Shown here: piece after piece, positions 1 to 12,042 of the stretch | Layout: every line of letters starts with the position of its first letter | Numbering within the stretch: the stretch's first letter is position 1 | Origin: a virus | Taxonomy: Duplodnaviria; Heunggongvirae; Uroviricota; Caudoviricetes | Virus record (IMG/VR): IMGVR_UViG_2698536618_000022 | Coordinates: 1-12,119 of that record | Strand: one strand, 5' to 3' | DNA length: 12,119 bases | Program-made: the position numbers and the translations under genes | Notes under the pieces: model-generated | What the model was told of the DNA's origin: nothing | The model's database searches: none | Seen by the model: only the letters and a program-made list of their open reading frames with translations

Positions 1-1248
1 ATGGCACTGAATATTCCATTCAGAAATGCGTACTATCGTTTTGCATCCAGTTACTCATTTCTCTTTTTTATTTCCTGGTCGCTGTGGTGGTCGTTATACG
101 CTATTTGGCTGAAAGGACATCTAGGGTTGACAGGGACGGAATTAGGTACACTTTATTCGGTCAACCAGTTTACCAGCATTCTATTTATGATGTTCTACGG
201 CATCGTTCAGGATAAACTCGGTCTGAAGAAACCGCTCATCTGGTGTATGAGTTTCATCCTGGTCTTGACCGGACCGTTTATGATTTACGTTTATGAACCG
301 TTACTGCAAAGCAATTTTTCTGTAGGTCTAATTCTGGGGGCGCTATTTTTTGGCTTGGGGTATCTGGCGGGATGCGGTTTGCTTGATAGCTTCACCGAAA
401 AAATGGCGCGAAATTTTCATTTCGAATATGGAACAGCGCGCGCCTGGGGATCTTTTGGCTATGCTATTGGCGCGTTCTTTGCCGGCATATTTTTTAGTAT
501 CAGTCCCCATATCAACTTCTGGTTGGTCTCGCTATTTGGCGCTGTATTTATGATGATCAACATGTGTTTTAAAGATAAGGATCACCAGTGCGTAGCGGCG
601 GATGCGGGAGGGGTAAAAAAAGAGGATTTTATCGCAGTTTTCAAGGATCGAAACTTCTGGGTTTTCGTCATATTTATTGTGGGGACGTGGTCTTTCTATA
701 ACATTTTTGATCAACAACTTTTTCCTGTCTTTTATGCAGGTTTATTCGAATCACACGATGTAGGAACGCGCCTGTATGGTTATCTCAACTCATTCCAGGT
801 GGTACTCGAAGCGCTATGCATGGCGATTATTCCTTTCTTTGTGAATCGGGTAGGGCCAAAAAATGCATTACTTATCGGTGTTGTGATTATGGCGTTGCGT
901 ATCCTTTCCTGCGCGCTGTTCGTTAACCCCTGGATTATTTCATTAGTGAAGCTGTTACATGCTATTGAGGTTCCACTTTGTGTCATATCCGTCTTCAAAT
1001 ACAGCGTGGCAAATTTTGATAAGCGCCTGTCGTCGACGATCTTTCTGATTGGTTTTCAAATTGCCAGTTCGCTTGGGATTGTGCTGCTTTCAACGCCGAC
1101 TGGGATACTCTTTGACCACGCAGGCTACCAGACAGTTTTCTTCGCAATTTCGGGTATTGTCTGCCTGATGTTGCTATTTGGCATTTTCTTCCTGAGTAAA
1201 AAACGCGAGCAAATAGTTATGGAAACGCCTGTACCTTCAGCAATATAG
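1..1248 (+). CDS. cscB: sucrose:H+ symporter, MFS oligosaccharide/H+ symporter family (LacY-like)
   Basis: 415-aa ORF beginning at window position 1; polytopic hydrophobic profile typical of a 12-TM MFS permease; N-terminus MALNIPFRNAYYRF... matches my recollection of E. coli CscB; family-level similarity to LacY. Confidence 0.85.
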   Translation: MALNIPFRNAYYRFASSYSFLFFISWSLWWSLYAIWLKGHLGLTGTELGTLYSVNQFTSILFMMFYGIVQDKLGLKKPLIWCMSFILVLTGPFMIYVYEPLLQSNFSVGLILGALFFGLGYLAGCGLLDSFTEKMARNFHFEYGTARAWGSFGYAIGAFFAGIFFSISPHINFWLVSLFGAVFMMINMCFKDKDHQCVAADAGGVKKEDFIAVFKDRNFWVFVIFIVGTWSFYNIFDQQLFPVFYAGLFESHDVGTRLYGYLNSFQVVLEALCMAIIPFFVNRVGPKNALLIGVVIMALRILSCALFVNPWIISLVKLLHAIEVPLCVISVFKYSVANFDKRLSSTIFLIGFQIASSLGIVLLSTPTGILFDHAGYQTVFFAISGIVCLMLLFGIFFLSKKREQIVMETPVPSAI

Positions 1249-1776: not shown

Positions 1777-1977
1777 TTACCCATTGGCGCGGCTTAAGAG
1801 CTTATTTTTGAATTCACAATGGTCACGATATAACCATCTTGCTCGCCCGTGGATAACTTTGGCTTTAGGCAGGTCGCCGGACTTAATCCGGTCATAGATG
1901 AAGGTTTTACCGAAGCCAGTATCGGCCATGATGAATTTCAAATCAACCAGTGAATCAGGTTGTAGTTCGTGTTGCAT
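1777..1977 (-). CDS. torI: excisionase / TorR inhibitor TorI (AlpA/Xis-family winged-helix DNA-binding protein)
   Basis: 66-aa ORF MQHELQPDSLVDLKFIMADTGFGKTFIYDRIKSGDLPKAKVIHGRARW...; matches remembered KplE1 TorI; AlpA-like helix-turn-helix core; GGAG SD about 10 nt upstream of the ATG. Confidence 0.85.
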   Translation of the reverse strand: MQHELQPDSLVDLKFIMADTGFGKTFIYDRIKSGDLPKAKVIHGRARWLYRDHCEFKNKLLSRANG

Positions 1978-2274: not shown

Positions 2275-2559
2275 TTATTCATTGCCGATATTCACTTTTA
2301 TCGCGAACACCTTTACCGGTTTATCACCGAAGTGCGGATGTGTGATTGTCTTGATTTCATATCCACCATACGGAACATCAATTCTGCGACTGGAATCGTC
2401 GCGCTTCGGATATCCCTTTGTGATAATCAGGCGGTCATACTTACGGTTAACGAGGCGCTTATTCCAGTAGTCATTACACAGGCGATACTCTTCCGTTTTA
2501 TCTCCGCGAATCATGGCATCGAAGTATTCACCTTTGACGGCAAGTTGTAGGTTAGCCAC
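2275..2559 (-). CDS. ASCH-domain protein (PUA-like beta-barrel), GTG start
   Basis: 94-aa ORF; GDKTEEYR fits the ASCH GxKxxExR signature; AGGAGG SD 6 nt upstream of the GTG; start overlaps the stop of the upstream Ea22-like gene. Confidence 0.65.
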   Translation of the reverse strand: MANLQLAVKGEYFDAMIRGDKTEEYRLCNDYWNKRLVNRKYDRLIITKGYPKRDDSSRRIDVPYGGYEIKTITHPHFGDKPVKVFAIKVNIGNE

Positions 2560-3574
2560 GGTTAACCTCCTGAGGCGGTTCTGGTAGAGGCATCCAGTGG
2601 GTTACATTGCTAATCAGACCATATTCATTAGTTTGAGGATGGTTGCCGCTATCGTCTCCGTATTTAAGACTCTCCATAAAGCCATAATGCCTATCCCCAT
2701 TAACGCTCACAAAGCCGTAATAAGCTGGTATAACGCCGATCTCACACGTAATCAGCAAAGGAAAACTAGTTCTCCAATTTAGCTCGCCGATTACAGGCAT
2801 TCTCTCACTACAGCTTATCCAACCATCCTTAATGCAATTACCTTGACTCTGAAGCATAGCGGCACGACAGGCGTTCCAGCCTCTCACCTCTGCAATAGCG
2901 GCAACAGCATCAACCGCGTACATGCTAAGAGGGTTAGGCATTGGTTTTTCTTCCGGTACTACTGGCGATGGCTGTTTGGCTTCTAAATCAGCAATTCTGT
3001 CAACCACGGCATCGACAGCATCTGAAAAACCGAACCAGTTACTCCACTCCGGCCTATCCCCGGTTGCTGCAAAATACATATCAGCCAAAGCAGCCTCAGC
3101 ATGGTCACGCTCGTTGATGAGTTGCTCTTCGCTTTTCTCCAGTTCAGCAATACGCTTACTCCCATCCGAGATAACGCCTTCGTAATACTCACGCTGCTCG
3201 TTGAGTTTTGATTTTGTCTCCTCAAGCTCAACACGCAGTTTCCCTACCGTTAGCGCAATATCCTCGTTCTCCTGGTCGCGGCGTTTGATGTATTGCTGGT
3301 TTCTTTCCCGTTCATCCAGCAGTGCCAGCACAATAGCCGGATTGGCTGCAGCGATGAATTCAGCATTGGCCTGCTGTTCCATTTGGAAATCTTCATCGAA
3401 ACCGCTTTCTGGATGCGCTCCTTCAATTCTGCAAATGGGAATATATCCAGCAACTTCACGATGAATTAGCGCATCATCACCATCAAATCGGCTCTCTCCA
3501 TATTCGAGCGACCACTCACCACACGTTGCTTTTTCTGCCGCTTCACGCAGTGCCTGATAGTCAATCTTGCTCAC
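2552..3574 (-). CDS. Ea22-like early protein: N-terminal Ead domain, central coiled coil, C-terminal DUF551-like domain
   Basis: 340-aa ORF; N-terminus MSKIDYQALREAAEKATCGEW and motif IAAANPAIVLALLDE are typical of lambda Ea22-family proteins; GTG start with GGAG SD. Confidence 0.75.
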   Translation of the reverse strand: MSKIDYQALREAAEKATCGEWSLEYGESRFDGDDALIHREVAGYIPICRIEGAHPESGFDEDFQMEQQANAEFIAAANPAIVLALLDERERNQQYIKRRDQENEDIALTVGKLRVELEETKSKLNEQREYYEGVISDGSKRIAELEKSEEQLINERDHAEAALADMYFAATGDRPEWSNWFGFSDAVDAVVDRIADLEAKQPSPVVPEEKPMPNPLSMYAVDAVAAIAEVRGWNACRAAMLQSQGNCIKDGWISCSERMPVIGELNWRTSFPLLITCEIGVIPAYYGFVSVNGDRHYGFMESLKYGDDSGNHPQTNEYGLISNVTHWMPLPEPPQEVNRG

Positions 3575-3815: not shown

Positions 3816-4119
3816 TGGTTGCCTCCTTTGCTGGGCTTTCTAACTTCTGAGTGGTTGTATCAAACTCAAACAACTTAACCACGTCATCAAACAGGACATA
3901 ATCGCCATCAGAATCTTCAGTCATGTCAGCGCCACAATCCTGACCGAACGAGTCACAACCATCCATATCAAGCTCGTATCGCTTGAGTTTTGCGATATTT
4001 GATAAATTCAGCGCCAGTACAGCAAGGTCATAAACCTCATCAGCGGTATACCCGGCACCATGCCCATACATTTCAATACGGGATATGATTTCTTCTACAC
4101 GTTGTTTTGTGATCGTCAT
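3808..4119 (-). CDS. hypothetical protein (103 aa), acidic C-terminal half
   Basis: ATG with GGAAGGTGAG SD; ATGA start/stop overlap with the upstream gene. Confidence 0.6.
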   Translation of the reverse strand: MTITKQRVEEIISRIEMYGHGAGYTADEVYDLAVLALNLSNIAKLKRYELDMDGCDSFGQDCGADMTEDSDGDYVLFDDVVKLFEFDTTTQKLESPAKEATSE

Positions 4120-4598
4120 TTTTGCTCACCTTCCTGTTCTTCCAGAAAAATACGCATAGCCTCAAGCATCTCTTCGGTGTCATACGGTGGCAACTTGTCA
4201 CGCAGGATGTGTTCAATGCTGTTAATGAACTTGCGGATTGCTTTGCGTTCAATTTCAGCCAGGAAAGCGTCGGTGGCTGGGGTTTCCGTGAAGTTGTCCT
4301 CCCAACCGTAGTACTCCTGACGACAGAAGTTATTAAATTCCTTCTCCGACTGTTTAAGCTCCGCATTCTCTGCTGCCAGCGCCGAAAACTTCTCGTGTGC
4401 CAACTTAACAGCTGCATCAGCCTGCTTAATTGACTCAATCGCTTTCTGGTGGTCTTCGTACAGAGCCGAAATCTTGGCCTCCGCTTCAGCAAATTTACGC
4501 ACCAGATATTCAGCGTTTGTTTCGTTAACCTTTAAATCATTTGGGATGCATTTACCTTTCAGAAATCCATCCATCTCAATTAGTGACATTTGTTTCAT
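4116..4598 (-). CDS. hypothetical coiled-coil protein (about 160 aa from the ATG at 4598; track ORF extends to a GTG at 4616)
   Basis: long helical, heptad-like sequence ([47 protein letters not shown]); ATG at 4596-4598 overlaps the stop of the upstream ORF (ATGA). Confidence 0.6.
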
Positions 4599-4759
4599 TT
4601 CTTCCCACTCCGCCACATCGCATTCAGATATTTGTTTTGATTCACTGACGGAAAAGAATTTCTCTTAAGCAATTCCTCTCTCGATGGCATTGGCTTTACG
4701 CGTTGGCGAATAATCATTTCTGCCGGAAGAATGCCGGGATTGTATGCAAGTCCTCTCAT
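4595..4759 (-). CDS. hypothetical small protein (54 aa)
   Basis: ATG at 4757-4759 preceded by GAGGAA SD at 7 nt; the longer track ORF (to 4912) overlaps the neighbouring gene out of frame and is probably an artefact. Confidence 0.4.
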
Positions 4760-6606: not shown

Positions 6607-6681
6607 GGGTAACTCCTTATATTTGATTGCATAACGAAAATGCCTCTCGTGAAGCATTATTGGTATGCGGTAAAGCCGCGC

Positions 6682-7050
6682 TCAGGCGGCTTTGATAGTC
6701 ATATCATCTGAATCAAATATTCCAGATGTGTCGATATCGGTAATTCTTATTCCTTCGCTACCATCCATTGGAGGCCATCCTTCCTGACCATTTCCATCAT
6801 TCCAGTCGAACTCACACACAACACCATATGCATTTAAGTCGCTTGAAATTGCTATAAGCAGAGCATGTTGCGCTAGCATGATTAATACAGCATTTAATAC
6901 AGAGCCGTGTTTTTTGAGTCTGTATTCAGAGTCTGACCAGAAATTATTAATCTGGTGAAGTTTTTCCTCTGTCATTACGTCATGGTCGATTTCAATTTCT
7001 ATTGATGCTTTCCAGTCGTAATCAATGATGTATTTTTTGATGTTTGACAT
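6682..7050 (-). CDS. hypothetical protein (122 aa)
   Basis: ATG with GAGGA SD; preceded on its transcript by a strong intrinsic terminator. Confidence 0.6.
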   Translation of the reverse strand: MSNIKKYIIDYDWKASIEIEIDHDVMTEEKLHQINNFWSDSEYRLKKHGSVLNAVLIMLAQHALLIAISSDLNAYGVVCEFDWNDGNGQEGWPPMDGSEGIRITDIDTSGIFDSDDMTIKAA

Positions 7051-7098: not shown

Positions 7099-7243
7099 AG
7101 AAGATTTCCAATAATCAGAACAAGTCGGCTCCTGTTTAGTTACGAGCGACATTGCTCACATAGCAGACTCGTAAATCTGCTATAGGCGCTTATTCGCACC
7201 GCATGACAACATCAAATTTTTCGAGATTACTTTGTCGCAACAA

Positions 7244-7348
7244 TCACTCTTCTACGCGGTCAGCTTTTCTATAATTATCAAATTCGAAATGTTTAATTAC
7301 TTCTTTCGTTTCTCGCTCTATAACTTCAACGATGTATTTCTTATTCAT
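7244..7348 (-). CDS. hypothetical small protein (34 aa)
   Basis: ATG overlaps the stop of the upstream Ead-like gene (TAATG); MNKKYIVEVIERETKEVIKHFEFDNYRKADRVEE; no independent SD, coupling only. Confidence 0.3.
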   Translation of the reverse strand: MNKKYIVEVIERETKEVIKHFEFDNYRKADRVEE

Positions 7349-7644
7349 TACTCATCACCTATGGCTTTTTTGATAGCTTCGAGAGCCTTATTAACAGCTC
7401 CATACCATTCTGGATATGTTGTCGTTGTTCTATTTTTGGATTGCTTAAGTAATAACTGAAGTGCTTCGAGAAGGTCAGGTGCTGCCGCTATTAGATTGGC
7501 ATCTTCAATACATTGAACTTCCTCACAGATTGCAATATACGAACGCCAGCCTGCGCCATTTTCAAGTGAGTCTGCCTGGATGATTTTAATCTCATTGCCA
7601 TCCATCATTATTTCCCACTTACCTTCAGTACCTTTAAATTCCAT
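7348..7644 (-). CDS. small Ead/Ea22-motif protein, paralog A (98 aa)
   Basis: contains IAAAPDLLEALQ and KALEAIKKAIG motifs shared with the ORF at 8285-8545 and with the Ea22-like N-terminal domain; SD AGAGG inside a repeated 30-bp linker. Confidence 0.65.
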   Translation of the reverse strand: MEFKGTEGKWEIMMDGNEIKIIQADSLENGAGWRSYIAICEEVQCIEDANLIAAAPDLLEALQLLLKQSKNRTTTTYPEWYGAVNKALEAIKKAIGDE

Positions 7645-7649
7645 GTTAG

Positions 7650-7679
7650 CCTCTGTTGTTTATGCCAAAAATAAAGGCC
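7650..7679. repeat. 30-bp direct repeat DR2, copy 1 (cctctgttgtttatgccaaaaataaaggcc); second copy at 8551-8580
   Basis: identical 30-mer read directly at both sites, each immediately upstream of an Ead-like paralog and adjoining a terminator-like hairpin. Confidence 0.85.
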
Positions 7680-7683
7680 ACCA

Positions 7684-7884
7684 TCAGGCAGCCTTGTTAT
7701 TCTGTTTACCAAGTTCTCTGGCAATCATTGCCGTCGTTCGCATTGCCCATTTATCGACATATTTCCCATCCTCCATTACAGGAAACATTTCTTCAGGCTT
7801 AACCATGCATTCCGATTGCAGCTTGCATCCATTGCATCGTTTGAATTGTCCACACCATTGATTTGTATCAATAGTCGTAGTCAT
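7684..7884 (-). CDS. ral: Ral-like restriction-alleviation protein (66 aa)
   Basis: MTTTIDTNQWCGQFKRCNGCKLQSECMVKPEEMFPVMEDGKYVDKW... matches my memory of lambda Ral, including length 66 aa; Cys cluster; AGGA SD. Confidence 0.7.
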   Translation of the reverse strand: MTTTIDTNQWCGQFKRCNGCKLQSECMVKPEEMFPVMEDGKYVDKWAMRTTAMIARELGKQNNKAA

Positions 7885-7954
7885 ACGGATAATCCTGGTA
7901 TTGTTCCATCACATCCTGCGGATGCTCTTCGAACTCTTCAAATTCTTCTTCCAT
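7868..7954 (-). CDS. small acidic ORF (28 aa), positional equivalent of lambda orf28
   Basis: ATG with GAGGTG SD 4 nt upstream inside a repeated linker; MEEEFEEFEEHPQDVMEQYQDYPYDYDY; 3' end overlaps the ral start. Confidence 0.4.
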   Translation of the reverse strand: MEEEFEEFEEHPQDVMEQYQDYPYDYDY

Positions 7955-7979
7955 ATATCACCTCAAATAAGTGGTTTGC
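7948..7979. repeat. 32-bp direct repeat DR1, copy 1 (cttccatatatcacctcaaataagtggtttgc); second copy at 8900-8931
   Basis: identical 32-mer at both sites; each carries the SD and start codon (ATGGAAG) of the downstream minus-strand gene; copy 2 also contains the last codons of N. Confidence 0.85.
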
Positions 7980-8009
7980 CGCGAAAAAGTAAAACAAGGA
8001 TACTCACTT

Positions 8010-8276
8010 CTATTTGTCATCGTGTAAGCGACGCAGGTTATTAACTCGCGGCCAGTAATATTTTGGCTTGGCACGAGATCCGGGTCTTGGACCTACACAA
8101 ACTATATAGCTCTCTTCTTTCCTCGGAAGGCCAGGTGCATCTAGCAGACGGCCTAGTTCGAATTTTTTTACGTTGACACCAGGAGGAATCACCTCGACGA
8201 TAAACCCGATTTTTACCTTCGTTACACCGTTTGATGAGCTTGACCATTTAACTTCATCGTTCAATTTGAACTTCAT
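8010..8276 (-). CDS. hypothetical basic protein (88 aa from the ATG at 8276; track ORF starts at a TTG at 8288)
   Basis: ORF with GAGG SD; Lys/Arg-rich (MKFKLNDEVKW...PRPGSRAKPKYYWPRVNNLRRLHDDK). Confidence 0.55.
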   Translation of the reverse strand: MKFKLNDEVKWSSSSNGVTKVKIGFIVEVIPPGVNVKKFELGRLLDAPGLPRKEESYIVCVGPRPGSRAKPKYYWPRVNNLRRLHDDK

Positions 8277-8284
8277 CATTAACC

Positions 8285-8545
8285 TCAATCGTAATAATCT
8301 TCACCAATAGCTTTGCTAATTGCTGACAGTGCTTTCGATACTTCATCAGGATAATGGTCATTCCAGCTTTGCTTGTATGCCTTGTTTAGCATCGCTTGCA
8401 GAGCTTCAAGCAAATCAGGAGCTGCCTCCATCAATCTCAAATCACCACGATGTATGGTTGTATCGTCAAACGTGACATAAACACCATCATCGTTGAATCC
8501 AGTGCCAACAACACTCCACGGCCTTTTCATTCTTTCTACGGTCAT
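8285..8545 (-). CDS. small Ead/Ea22-motif protein, paralog B (86 aa from the ATG at 8545; the track ORF starts at a GTG at 8551)
   Basis: shares MEAAPDLLEALQ and KALSAISKAIG motifs with paralog A; preceded by DR2 copy 2. Confidence 0.6.
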   Translation of the reverse strand: MTVERMKRPWSVVGTGFNDDGVYVTFDDTTIHRGDLRLMEAAPDLLEALQAMLNKAYKQSWNDHYPDEVSKALSAISKAIGEDYYD

Positions 8546-8550
8546 ATCCA

Positions 8551-8580
8551 CCTCTGTTGTTTATGCCAAAAATAAAGGCC
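8551..8580. repeat. 30-bp direct repeat DR2, copy 2
   Basis: identical to 7650-7679; followed by the minus-strand hairpin GGCCGC-ATAA-TCGGCC with a T-rich tail (terminator-like). Confidence 0.85.
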
Positions 8581-8582
8581 GA

Positions 8583-8906
8583 TTATGCGGCCTTATCTAC
8601 ATTCCTGAACCAAACGCAGATCGGACCGTCTTCTGTATCGTGAATCGAACCGACAAACCATCCTTCTCCATCTGGCATGCTTGGCTCCCATCCACTGATG
8701 TTTGGATTCCCATCTTCAAAATACGCGTCAATTACCGTTTGATTGTTGTCGTTTCCCATTTCAACAATTGATGATTCAATGCCATGCTGCTTGCAGAAAG
8801 ATCTGAACTCATCAGCTGAAATTACCTCTCTATCCCCAAACAGGTTGGCGTATTCTGGGTGCGTCCAGTAGCCATCCTCGCTTCGCTCTACTACTAATGC
8901 TTCCAT
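8583..8906 (-). CDS. strongly acidic hypothetical protein (107 aa)
   Basis: ATG with GAGGTG SD inside DR1 copy 2; by my count 22 Asp+Glu versus 6 Arg+Lys; first gene after N. Confidence 0.65.
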   Translation of the reverse strand: MEALVVERSEDGYWTHPEYANLFGDREVISADEFRSFCKQHGIESSIVEMGNDNNQTVIDAYFEDGNPNISGWEPSMPDGEGWFVGSIHDTEDGPICVWFRNVDKAA

Positions 8907-8931
8907 ATATCACCTCAAATAAGTGGTTTGC
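8900..8931. repeat. 32-bp direct repeat DR1, copy 2
   Basis: identical to 7948-7979; overlaps the 3' end of N and the start of the acidic ORF. Confidence 0.85.
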
Positions 8932-9214
8932 TGCCTAATTTCATTTTCTGGCGACCAACACAAGTCACACCCATTTCACTGCGTGGCTTGCGGTAGTAAA
9001 TACGGTTCTGTTTACTCTCGACTTCTTCTGCCTTCTTACAGCGAAGGCTTCCGAGTGATGCTGCTTTATCTGCTCTGACGCAACCAGAGAGCTTTAGCGC
9101 AATTTTTCGCGCCAGTCGCTGCTCTTGCATTGCCTGTTCACGTTGAGCCTGTCTGCGTGCTCTGCGGCGATTTCTGGCGTTATCGTCAGCCAGATATGTA
9201 ATGACTACTGTCAT
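8915..9214 (-). CDS. N: N-type transcription antitermination protein (phage-21-like N)
   Basis: 99 aa from MTVVITYLADDNARNRRRARRQAQ (arginine-rich motif); C-terminus ...RIYYRKPRSEMGVTCVGRQKMKLGSKPLI resembles the lambda/phi21 N C-termini as I recall them; GGAGG SD; nutL lies upstream on the same transcript. Confidence 0.85.
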   Translation of the reverse strand: MTVVITYLADDNARNRRRARRQAQREQAMQEQRLARKIALKLSGCVRADKAASLGSLRCKKAEEVESKQNRIYYRKPRSEMGVTCVGRQKMKLGSKPLI

Positions 9215-9624: not shown

Positions 9625-9715
9625 ATGGCTTAAATTTAAGATCTCTTTAATTAATGGTCAAGAGTATTTTTGAAGAAAACTTAAATTTTCTTTCGTAACT
9701 TAAGTTTGGCTTTGA
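9625..9715 (-). promoter_or_regulatory. PL promoter with OL operators (P22-type 18-bp operators)
   Basis: minus-strand -35 TTGACC (9656-9661), 17-bp spacer, -10 TAAATT (9633-9638); operator ATTTAAGATCTCTTTAAT at 9634-9651 plus two degenerate copies near 9679-9696 and 9698-9715. Confidence 0.6.
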
Positions 9716-9752: not shown

Positions 9753-10403
9753 TTATGGAAGGTTTGCTAGTTTTGCATCGACAACTACGCCGATGATTTT
9801 GCAGTTTCCGTTGATCTCGATCATCGGATATTGTGGGTTAAGTGGTTTTAGAAACTTCCTGCCTGCATCAATAACTAACTTCTTGAAAGTTGCCTCGTTT
9901 TCTCCTTCGAGCTTTGCAACTACCAGTTTCCCGTTACGCGGCTCTACTTCAGGATCGACGAGTATTATCATTCCTTCAGGGATACTGAGACCGGCCGGAG
10001 CCGTCATTGAGTCTCCCTTCACGTCCAACCAAAACGAATCTTCTGAACAGTCTACGGTTGTATCGTACCAGTTATCTATTGCACGCTTATGATATGGTTC
10101 CACAGCTTCCATCCAGCATCCTGCGCTCACCCAGCTAATCAGAGGGTATGACCCTCTTGGATCATGCCTACTGTGATAGGCAATGTTTGAAAGACTTTCC
10201 TCTCCTTTCATCAGATAGTCAGGGGAACACTTCAACGCATTAGCCAGGGCGAGAAGATTCTCTCCATTTGGCTCTGTCTCAGAGCGTTCCCACTGAGATA
10301 TGGCAACATTAGACACGCCGACCATCTTTCCAAGTGCGGCCTGCCTGATCTTGAGTTCTTTTCTCCGAGCGCGAATGCGCTCTCCCATCAATTGAGTTTT
10401 CAT
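9753..10403 (-). CDS. c2: CI-type prophage repressor, P22 C2-like (HTH plus LexA-like S24 autopeptidase domain)
   Basis: 216 aa; MKTQLMGERIRARRKELKIRQAALGKMVGVSNVAISQWERSETEPNGENLLALANAL... matches remembered P22 C2; GDSM serine motif and VVAKL lysine of the S24 catalytic dyad. Confidence 0.95.
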   Translation of the reverse strand: MKTQLMGERIRARRKELKIRQAALGKMVGVSNVAISQWERSETEPNGENLLALANALKCSPDYLMKGEESLSNIAYHSRHDPRGSYPLISWVSAGCWMEAVEPYHKRAIDNWYDTTVDCSEDSFWLDVKGDSMTAPAGLSIPEGMIILVDPEVEPRNGKLVVAKLEGENEATFKKLVIDAGRKFLKPLNPQYPMIEINGNCKIIGVVVDAKLANLP

Positions 10404-11103: not shown

Positions 11104-12042
11104 ATGACAAATACAGCAAAAATACTCAACTTCGGCAGAGGTAACTTTGCCGAACAGGAGCGTAATGTGGCAGATCTCGATGATGGTTACGCCAGACTAT
11201 CAAATATGCTGATTGAGGCTTATTCAGGCGCAGATCTGACCAAGCGACAGTTTAAAGTGCTGCTTGCCATTCTGCGTAAAACCTATGGGTGGAATAAACC
11301 AATGGACAGAATCACCGATTCTCAACTTAGCGAGATTACAAAGTTACCCGTCAAACGGTGCAATGAAGCCAAGTTAGAACTCGTCAGAATGAATATTATC
11401 AAGCAGCAAGGCGGCATGTTTGGACCAAATAAAAACATCTCAGAATGGTGCATCCCTCAAAACGAGGGAGGTTCTCCTAAAATGAGGGACATCCCTCAAA
11501 ACGAGGGAAAATCCCCTAAAACGAGGGATAAAACATCCCTCAAATTAGGGGATTGCTATCCCTCAAAACAGGGGGACACAAAAGACACTATTACAAAAGA
11601 AAAAAGAAAAGATTATTCGTCCGAGAATTCTGGCGAATCCTCTGACCAGCCAGAAAACGATCTTTCTGTGGTTAAACCGGATGCTGCAATTCAGAGCGGC
11701 AGCAAGTGGGGAACAGCAGAAGACCTGACCGCCGCAGAGTGGATGTTTGACATGGTGAAGACCATCGCACCATCAGCCAGAAAACCGAATTTTGCAGGGT
11801 GGGCTAACGATATCCGCCTGATGCGTGAACGTGACGGACGTAACCACCGCGACATGTGCGTGCTGTTCCGCTGGGCATGCCAGGACAACTTCTGGTCCGG
11901 TAACGTGCTAAGTCCGGCCAAACTCCGCGACAAGTGGACCCAGCTCGAAATCAACCGTAACAAGCAACAGGCTGGCGTGACAGCTGGAAAACCAAAACTC
12001 GACCTGACAAACACTGACTGGATTTACGGGGTGGATTTATGA
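11104..12042 (+). CDS. O: replication initiator O (lambda O-like), containing the origin iterons
   Basis: 312 aa; MTNTAKILNFGRGNFAEQERNVADLDDGYARLSNMLIEAYSGADLTKRQFKVLLAILRKTYGWNKPMDRITDSQL... matches lambda O. Confidence 0.95.
   Translation: MTNTAKILNFGRGNFAEQERNVADLDDGYARLSNMLIEAYSGADLTKRQFKVLLAILRKTYGWNKPMDRITDSQLSEITKLPVKRCNEAKLELVRMNIIKQQGGMFGPNKNISEWCIPQNEGGSPKMRDIPQNEGKSPKTRDKTSLKLGDCYPSKQGDTKDTITKEKRKDYSSENSGESSDQPENDLSVVKPDAAIQSGSKWGTAEDLTAAEWMFDMVKTIAPSARKPNFAGWANDIRLMRERDGRNHRDMCVLFRWACQDNFWSGNVLSPAKLRDKWTQLEINRNKQQAGVTAGKPKLDLTNTDWIYGVDL
11451..11620 (+). repeat. ori-lambda-type replication origin inside O: iterons (ATCCCTCAAAACGAGGGA-like, about 6 copies) followed by an AT-rich unwinding region
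   Basis: repeats catccctcaaaacgaggga, ttctcctaaaatgagggac, atccctcaaaacgagggaa, atcccctaaaacgagggat, atccctcaaattaggggat, atccctcaaaacaggggga; then acaaaagacactattacaaaagaaaaaagaaaag. Confidence 0.85.

Follow-up and report, generated by a model that had tools for sequence, protein, structure and literature searches.

The left early (pL) region of a lambdoid Escherichia coli prophage analysed here, a stretch of 12,119 nucleotides beside a cscB-like sugar permease (IMG/VR record IMGVR_UViG_2698536618_000022; hereafter the window), carries two small genes, p1 (7348-7644, 98 aa) and p2 (8285-8545, 86 aa), on the minus strand, which also holds the other genes treated below, among them N, ral, orf107 and the gene of an Ea22-like protein. 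On balance, we consider it probable that p1 and p2 encode diverged, xenologous members of a widespread family of phage early proteins of roughly 90-100 residues, built as a beta-meander followed by a helical hairpin, and that these genes were shuffled as cassettes, were inserted separately, depend on N for their expression and present variable binding surfaces. The similarity between the two products that the initial annotation of this DNA had pointed out is real and statistically sound, and its claim about their N-termini needs correction; the interpretation given there is in part correct on the evolutionary side and unproven on the mechanistic side.

Two members of one small phage protein family

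Both open reading frames (ORFs) were confirmed at the positions first proposed, and the assignment of the p2 start to the ATG at 8545 agrees with a Shine-Dalgarno (SD) spacing identical to that of p1 and with homologues that begin MTVERMK. The two motifs reported as shared are exact, occurring as AAAPDLLEALQ (residues 53-63) and KALEAIKKAIGDE in p1 and as EAAPDLLEALQ (residues 40-50) and KALSAISKAIGED in p2, but the first is central in the protein rather than C-terminal as had been stated. The core motif occupies residues 51-63 of p1 (LIAAAPDLLEALQ; 7456-7494, minus strand) and residues 38-50 of p2 (LMEAAPDLLEALQ; 8396-8434, minus strand); it is made of near-invariant columns, forms the joint of the two cassettes described below, and 7 of its 10 identical codons differ synonymously between p2 and p1. 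The C-terminal motif reads KALEAIKKAIG in p1 (residues 86-96; 7357-7389, minus strand), where A90, I91, K93, A94 and G96 are invariant, and KALSAISKAIG in p2 (residues 71-81; 8303-8335, minus strand). Direct comparison of the two proteins by BLASTP (43 bits, E=6e-12, 41% identity over 64 aa) places this similarity far beyond chance, and p1 and p2 are homologues of one small domain family, as had been supposed.

Where the initial annotation went wrong is in calling the N-terminal halves unrelated. They are divergent but related, with a common Trp10, the same predicted order of secondary-structure elements and an end-to-end match to the family profile phrog_1273, in which residues 1-97 of p1 (E=3.3e-31) and residues 3-84 of p2 (E=2.2e-18) both cover positions 4-100 of 103. 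A profile built from homologues recovers p1 at E=1e-41 and p2 at E=2e-33 among the 158 ORFs of the window. Rather than one domain joined to unrelated effector halves, p1 and p2 are proteins of about 90 aa that are homologous from end to end and share a predicted fold.

All database homologues, which reach 94% identity to p1 and 98% to p2, carry the precomputed label PF27050, and the assignment of p1 and p2 to PF27050 is made through these labels rather than by a direct model score. The two proteins agree with phrog_1273/PF27050 in length, motifs and prophage early-region context, and nothing sets them apart; all that is unusual about the window is that it holds two members whose cassettes do not overlap. 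A profile of 43 homologues, scored against 1.84 billion representative proteins (clusters at 50% identity), matched 56,309 clusters at a threshold of E<=1e-3 and 690 when the limit was E<=1e-10. Almost all are stand-alone proteins 90-110 residues long, and the match spans the whole protein. In a genome scan the family turned up in Gamma-, Beta- and Alphaproteobacteria, Bacteroidota, Planctomycetota, Fibrobacterota, Gemmatimonadota, Verrucomicrobiota, Bacillota and Actinomycetota, and the neighbours in 40 diverse loci are prophage early genes, encoding S24 repressors, single-stranded DNA-binding protein (SSB), RecT, YqaJ, DNA methylases, NinB, Rha, DksA-type zinc fingers and DUF551 proteins. 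Two family genes lie within 4 kb of each other in 3 of 62 diverse genome loci, making multiple copies uncommon but not unique. Longer family proteins are tandem fusions of two units, found in other taxa, in which the second unit is often the helical hairpin alone; a 1,600-aa "seven-repeat" match (P0394) was rejected as a false positive, consisting of Ig-like repeats with IDAAPDLENA that a broader profile misses.

Lytic Vequintavirinae phages also carry a member, such as the 86-aa gp030 of the Klebsiella phage KpS8 (L010:1504-1761), which sits among nucleotide-metabolism genes in phages of about 145 kb. Its beta-half and that of p1 are identical at about 50% of positions, and its C-half is divergent (...ALLKRLTGE), so the N1-type beta-half is conserved across very different phage lifestyles. 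Searches of p1 and p2 against a local copy of Pfam, NCBIfam and PADLOC returned nothing meaningful, a profile search of PDB sequences gave nothing below E=0.36, and no paper came up when the full text of the literature was searched for the motif, for phrog_1273 or for PF27050. p1 and p2 are new members of a catalogued family that has no assigned function, and they do not represent a new kind of system.

The AlphaFold2 model of p1 has strands at residues 10-15, 18-23 and 36-40 and helices at 43-70 and 77-95, with a mean predicted local distance difference test score (pLDDT) of 77 and a predicted template-modelling score (pTM) of 0.69; that of p2 has strands at 12-18, 21-26 and 29-31 and helices at 33-58 and 61-80 (pLDDT 73, pTM 0.49). 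Both show the same order, three beta-strands forming a beta-meander and then a two-helix hairpin. A putative common fold draws on profiles and on the order of secondary-structure elements. In Foldseek searches the p1 model matched only generic helical hairpins in the PDB (E>=0.39) and only uncharacterised phage proteins in BFVD.

Conservation across 133 diverse members gives this predicted fold a distinct anatomy. The near-invariant positions, in p1 numbering, are T6, G8, W10, L51, I52, A54, A55, P56, L58, L59, A61, L62, A90, I91, K93, A94 and G96, and the resulting signature of W10, an LIAAAPDLLEAL core and an AIxKAxG C-terminus is complete in p1, while p2 has LMEAAPDLLEAL and AISKAIG. On the models, the near-invariant motifs would fall at the start of helix 1 (L-I-A-A-A-P-D-L-L-E-A-L) and at the end of helix 2 (A-I-x-K-A-x-G), that is, at the open end of the hairpin. 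An antiparallel hairpin with its turn at residues 71-76 puts residues 51-62 opposite residues 85-96, and the two motifs are therefore expected to pack on each other. Most likely, judging from this modelled arrangement, they form an Ala/Gly-rich helix-helix clasp within one chain and not a separately fused interaction module. The clasp may also seat the beta-sheet, with the Trp of strand 1 able to dock at the open end of the hairpin, and the surfaces free to vary would then be two, the beta-meander and the hairpin's closed tip.

Cassette exchange, conserved joints and separate insertion

Typing of 276 enterobacterial members, with types defined as clusters at 60% identity, divided the beta-half into 11 N types and the hairpin tip into 35 C types, with 62 pairings of the two among these sequences. 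p1 combines N1 with C1, and p2 combines N2 with C0; N1 is also paired with C0, C18, C6, C7, C10 and C25, and N2 with seven C types. Beta-half and hairpin tip assort independently in enterobacterial phages. A chimera in E. coli STEC711 is p1-like to codon 58 and p2-like from codon 62, which places the crossover inside AAPDLL(E/N)AL. Both results uphold, across the family, the earlier suggestion of a constant core combined with exchangeable variable parts. In its behaviour the gene consists of two exchangeable cassettes with three conserved patches as their boundaries, namely a 5' linker containing a terminator and a ribosome-binding site (RBS), the core motif and the 3' motif; homologous recombination at these patches reshuffles the cassettes and moves the gene between lambdoid genomes.

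Since crossovers map to the motif and the linker is a conserved nucleotide element, one could suppose that selection preserves the motifs as DNA, for recombination or regulation, and that the ORFs, or at least the motifs, have no role as protein. This is scarcely credible. Between p1 and p2, 14 of the 19 codons for identical motif residues differ synonymously, and the motif is therefore conserved at the protein level and does not reflect recent copying of DNA. The amino acids are thus conserved while the codons are scrambled, the same protein motifs recur across phyla of very different GC content, and the profile matches extend over the full length of the proteins. A role at the DNA level only is largely refuted by the synonymous-site pattern.

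The 5' joint is the linker. A 30-nt direct repeat, identical in its two copies, immediately precedes each start codon (7650-7679 and 8551-8580), which confirms the earlier remark that both genes are anchored to one linker. It comprises the right arm of a terminator-like hairpin, an UUUAUUUUU tract, a spacer and the SD sequence. The left arms differ and lie within the last codons of the genes upstream, which both end in ...KAA-stop: ral (7684-7884, minus strand; antirestriction; Pfam PF11058, 1.2e-47) before p1, and orf107 (8583-8906, minus strand), a homologue of the accessory gene orf184, directly before p2. Copy 1 (7650-7695, minus strand) thus includes a hairpin across the ral stop codon (7674-7695) with a 9-bp stem, folding at -17 kcal/mol minimum free energy (z -2.7), and copy 2 (8551-8594, minus strand) a hairpin at the orf107 stop codon (8575-8594) with a 7-bp stem at -14.5 kcal/mol (z -1.9). 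In both linkers a GC-rich hairpin is followed by a U-tract on the transcribed strand, as in rho-independent terminators; scans for Rfam families and tRNAs returned nothing that bears on the linker.

In IMG/VR, 89 contigs contain one exact copy each of the 30-mer. The genes upstream of it are of at least 8 kinds, and an orf184-type C-terminus precedes it in 8 of these 89 loci. A family gene follows it in 77 of the 89 contigs, two family genes in none of the 77. In phage 21 the linker after ral is present with no family gene behind it, an empty site. Other ORFs were also seen after the linker: in 9 contigs a 44-aa ORF (MNAVEFTKWMAEQ...KEAANALGGE) that resembles the family at its C-terminal end only, in 3 contigs an unrelated ORF of 64-65 aa, and in one case a 107-aa variant in which an unrelated N-terminus is joined to the C-half of the family. 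These followers (IMG/VR loci L011-L099) are further products of cassette exchange or deletion.

Hairpins of this type recur in the window, where 15 terminator-like sites were counted against 7.3 +/- 3.2 in shuffled sequences. Gene ends that read ...(K/Q)AA-stop, with a GC-rich hairpin over the stop codon and a U-tract after it, were found at 2026-2045, 6672-6692, 7674-7695 and 8575-8594 (minus strand), which suggests a recurring gene-end or terminator module in the operon. With p1 and p2 located in the pL operon, each behind a hairpin resembling an intrinsic terminator, we infer N-dependent, delayed-early expression; both proteins would be made only after N antitermination.

How two copies came to lie in one operon is indicated by comparison with phage 21. 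By blastn, the window carries two insertions relative to that phage: the first (7158-7651, minus strand) contains p1 and a 34-codon ORF, and the second (7983-8899, minus strand) contains orf107, the linker, p2 and orf92. The p1/p2 region is thus variably present, being absent from phage 21 between the same flanks. Insertion 2 is flanked by a 49-nt direct repeat (7934-7982 and 8886-8934, 86% identical) made up of the last 20 nt of N (8915-9214, minus strand) together with the RBS and the first bases of the gene that follows. The copies of this repeat bracket a module of 917-952 bp (orf107-p2-orf92) absent from phage 21, and the repeat looks like the footprint of insertion by recombination at a linker. 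The two genes lie in separate insertions and were therefore acquired independently at short conserved joints, not by local duplication.

The obvious alternative, a recent tandem or segmental duplication inside the prophage followed by fast N-terminal divergence, can appeal to the shared operon and orientation, the distance of only 901 bp and the identical 30-nt 5' linkers. We rejected it as very improbable because of the separate insertions relative to phage 21 and the codon divergence of the motif. The insertions have different flanks, the proteins share just 41% of their residues and 14 of 19 identical motif codons are synonymously different; moreover, each copy has closer relatives elsewhere, each occurring singly (94% for p1, 98% for p2), DNA identity ends exactly at the ends of the linker, and none of the 77 linker-bearing viral loci has two copies. 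p1 and p2 are anciently diverged xenologues, not local duplicates.

Mosaic junctions of this kind, called linker or boundary sequences, have been described for the lambdoid phages HK97/HK022 and HK620, where short conserved intergenic sequences join unrelated modules. The likeness lies in the 30-nt terminator/RBS element and the 49-nt N-end/RBS element flanking the inserted modules. What differs is that, besides these intergenic joints, there is an intragenic joint in the protein-constrained motif, and the same small gene is therefore shuffled in halves.

The Ea22-like protein as a candidate third copy

The initial annotation had counted three copies of one domain in the operon, the third in the N-terminal part of the 340-aa product of the ORF at 2552-3574 (minus strand). 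This protein is a genuine member of the Ead/Ea22 family and has DUF551 at its C-terminus: Pfam PF13935 matches residues 2-146 (3e-40, 138 bits), a coiled coil follows, and PF04448 matches residues 251-335 (6e-12). The AAAxPxxLxAL motif ascribed to it is approximate, the actual sequence being AAANPAIVLAL, with one extra residue before the Pro and V for L. With p1 and p2 secure as copies, the Ea22-like protein is probably related to them over its N-terminal beta part and helix 1, at moderate strength, while the C-terminal motif is absent.

The family profile ranks the Ea22-like ORF third of the 158 window ORFs (E=0.0019) and, among eight phage Ead/Ea22 proteins, scores only those having an extra segment. 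These eight phage records formed our comparison set; a protein-database search had given just Ea22 N-termini that are 93-97% identical. Alignment of the family profile to that of Ea22 with hhalign (A2 against A3) gave 85% probability (E=5.8e-6) over 58 columns, pairing family columns 29-86 with Ea22 residues 15-90, and other versions of the Ea22 alignment gave 60-62% (E=8e-5 to 9e-5). None of 200 column shuffles reached the real score (mean 11, maximum 22, real 31).

Several results count against the link. The link is recovered by profile methods only: BLASTP of p1 and p2 directly against the Ea22-like protein gave no significant similarity (E=0.72 and 0.43), neither matches Pfam Ead_Ea22 at E<=1 (gathering score 27 bits), and just 1 of 133 family members matches PF13935, weakly (E=0.03). 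Shuffling in blocks of 8 columns gave scores averaging 19 and reaching 35 against the real 31; the signal therefore comes partly from the local ANAxxIAAA motif, and colinearity adds about 3 standard deviations. Taken together, these comparisons make residues 15-90 of the Ea22-like protein (KATCGEW ... ANAEFIAAANPAIVLALLDE; 3305-3532, minus strand) a probable remote homologue of the family's beta-half and first helix.

The shape of the Ead/Ea22 proteins fits such a relationship in part. Those with the extra segment carry TxGxW ... ANAxxIAAAxP..LAL in the same order as the family, with a beta-rich spacer between, and the Ea22-like protein is encoded in the same pL operon as p1 and p2. Ead/Ea22 proteins differ in having an N-terminal helix (xIDYQALREAAEKA) and a long central coiled coil (ERERNQQYIKRRDQENEDIAL...), both present in the 340-aa ORF and the eight phage proteins and absent from p1 and p2, and in ending with a variable C-terminal domain, here DUF551, without the family's return helix AIxKAxG. 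Between N-terminal helix and coiled coil lies a variable cassette: in the window, HK629, phiV10 and 611R6 it is a segment bounded by KAT(C/K)G.. and ANAEFIAAANP, which lambda Ea22 lacks. The extra stretch of the Ea22-like protein matches the "63 amino segment" that has been reported only for Ea22 variants of Stx phages (PMC10834534). The Ea22-like protein may accordingly be pictured as a remote relative of the beta-half and helix 1 fused to a coiled coil. A 166-aa ORF (4116-4616, minus strand) has the coiled-coil PHROG phrog_368 in common with the Ea22-like protein, and the Ea22 coiled-coil module may also occur twice in the operon, joined to different ends.

This third relative also bears on the proposal that the shared motifs form an oligomerisation or interaction module, through which p1, p2 and the Ea22-like protein would form homo- or hetero-oligomers with their variable halves as effectors. 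Ea22 proteins are tetramers, by a mode of assembly left unresolved in the published work (PMC10834534). The return helix is missing from the Ea22-like protein although helix 1 is there, leaving room for a partner helix supplied in trans, and the motif is rich in small residues. The tandem two-unit fusions of other taxa, often with the hairpin alone as second unit, are also what a self-pairing unit would lead one to expect. We nevertheless regard the proposal as doubtful: both small proteins are predicted to be closed hairpins with the motifs facing each other within one chain, the variable halves are 35-45 aa of beta-strand and too small for typical effectors, and the similarity to Ea22 is just moderate.

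Operon context and possible function

In the operon, the gene order that follows the gene of a cI-like repressor (9753-10403) and a pL-like promoter (9633-9661) is N, orf107, p2, orf92 (8010-8288, minus strand), a 29-codon ORF, ral, p1, the 34-codon ORF directly after it (7243-7348, minus strand) and a gene for an Ea10-like DUF2528 protein. Beyond these lies a block of short ORFs, in the place of cIII and kil in phage 21, and after it the genes of an ERF-family recombinase and SSB, further small ORFs, the gene of the Ea22-like protein and xis. orf92, assigned to phrog_11941 and giving no Pfam match, forms an ATGA-type junction with p2, whose stop codon it overlaps, and is part of the same inserted module; in E. 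coli STEC711 it is found at 98.5% identity beside N without p2. Among phage records and complete E. coli genomes, none contains at least 80% of the p1-p2 region in one piece, and this mosaic is therefore uncommon.

At the far end of the prophage, a cscB-like oligosaccharide MFS permease gene (1-1248, plus strand) abuts the xis end (1777-1977, minus strand). No integrase or tRNA gene lies within the window, which points to an attachment site between about 1250 and 1780, beside the sucrose (csc) locus. In the replication O-like gene, two tandem 39-nt repeats (11451-11528, plus strand; 87% identical) are presumably iteron-type origin repeats of lambdoid phages.

The region between N and ral is known as a hypervariable accessory region, and 200 accessory genes of enterobacteriophages, orf123 of Sf101 and orf184 of mEp213 among them, have been screened in ECOR strains of E. 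coli (bioRxiv 10.1101/2023.04.06.535777). p2 is 91% identical to orf123 (Sf101 AII27858.1), which like p2 is a gene of the hypervariable enterobacterial phage accessory region holding ral and orf184, and orf107 is 97% identical to orf184 (mEp213 AFM76385.1). orf184 was reported to trigger the gop-beta-cII abortive-infection system of P4-like satellites and shares an accessory region with ral (10.1101/2023.04.06.535777). No p1-type gene is in the 200-gene list of that study. In the window, orf107 stands directly upstream of p2 within the same inserted module.

With such neighbours, p1 and p2 could be counter-defence proteins or modulators of defence triggers, for example by masking an orf184-type trigger of gop-beta-cII or by blocking another host immunity protein, and the shuffling of cassettes would then reflect an arms race. 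Their position in the N-ral accessory region beside the anti-restriction gene, the placement of p2 directly behind a close homologue of a reported gop-beta-cII trigger, the orf184-type C-terminus before the linker in 8 of 89 viral loci and the high diversity of cassettes are all consistent with this. Even so, we judge it unlikely. orf123 has no reported counter-defence or lethality phenotype in the 200-gene screen, there is no PADLOC match or structural match to a known inhibitor, and most family genes do not lie beside orf184.

The reading that we prefer is less specific about the partner. We propose that a constant scaffold presents two independently varying surfaces that would bind a variable partner of the host or of a rival phage, which is the weakest step of the mechanism, and one operon with N1C1 and N2C0 would then have two specificities. 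A number of points weigh against this account as a whole. The confidence of both models is moderate (pLDDT 77 and 73, pTM 0.69 and 0.49), and structure prediction, which had been suggested as a check on the copies, bore out the common order of elements in p1 and p2 but gave no significant match in BFVD for the p2 model, and the BFVD lists of p1 and p2 differ. The clasp within one chain comes from helix register and topology, not from coordinates, and N-dependence from consensus hairpins only. Finally, orf123 is unmentioned among the genes with a phenotype in the screen (10.1101/2023.04.06.535777) or in its follow-up (PMC12373910).

A bolder extension, which we think improbable, would make the family a pan-bacterial phage "mini-scaffold", in which an invariant Ala-rich clasp carries two recombining surfaces as a swappable specificity module. 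Acting like microproteins, p1 and p2 might then bind the homologous N-terminal segment of Ea22-type tetramers or compete with it, tuning the choice between lysis and lysogeny, or they might neutralise variable host immunity sensors, such as those triggered by an orf184-type neighbour. If this were true, a phage with two copies whose cassettes do not overlap would reach a wider set of targets.

In summary, p1 and p2 are a clean example of known lambdoid mosaicism and not a new system, ordinary but tidy, and because the family is catalogued and the mosaicism classic, little changes for phage biology in general. The family itself is among the most widespread uncharacterised small phage proteins, with more than 56,000 clusters at 50% identity, and its domain is the probable source of the extra N-terminal segment of Ea22 variants in Stx phages, for which there had been no explanation. 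Two kinds of recombination joint, a terminator/RBS linker and a motif under constraint as protein, can be seen in this locus at base-pair resolution, and the anatomy proposed here, an invariant clasp with two shuffled cassettes, offers a rational design for mutagenesis and for the search for binding partners across this family.

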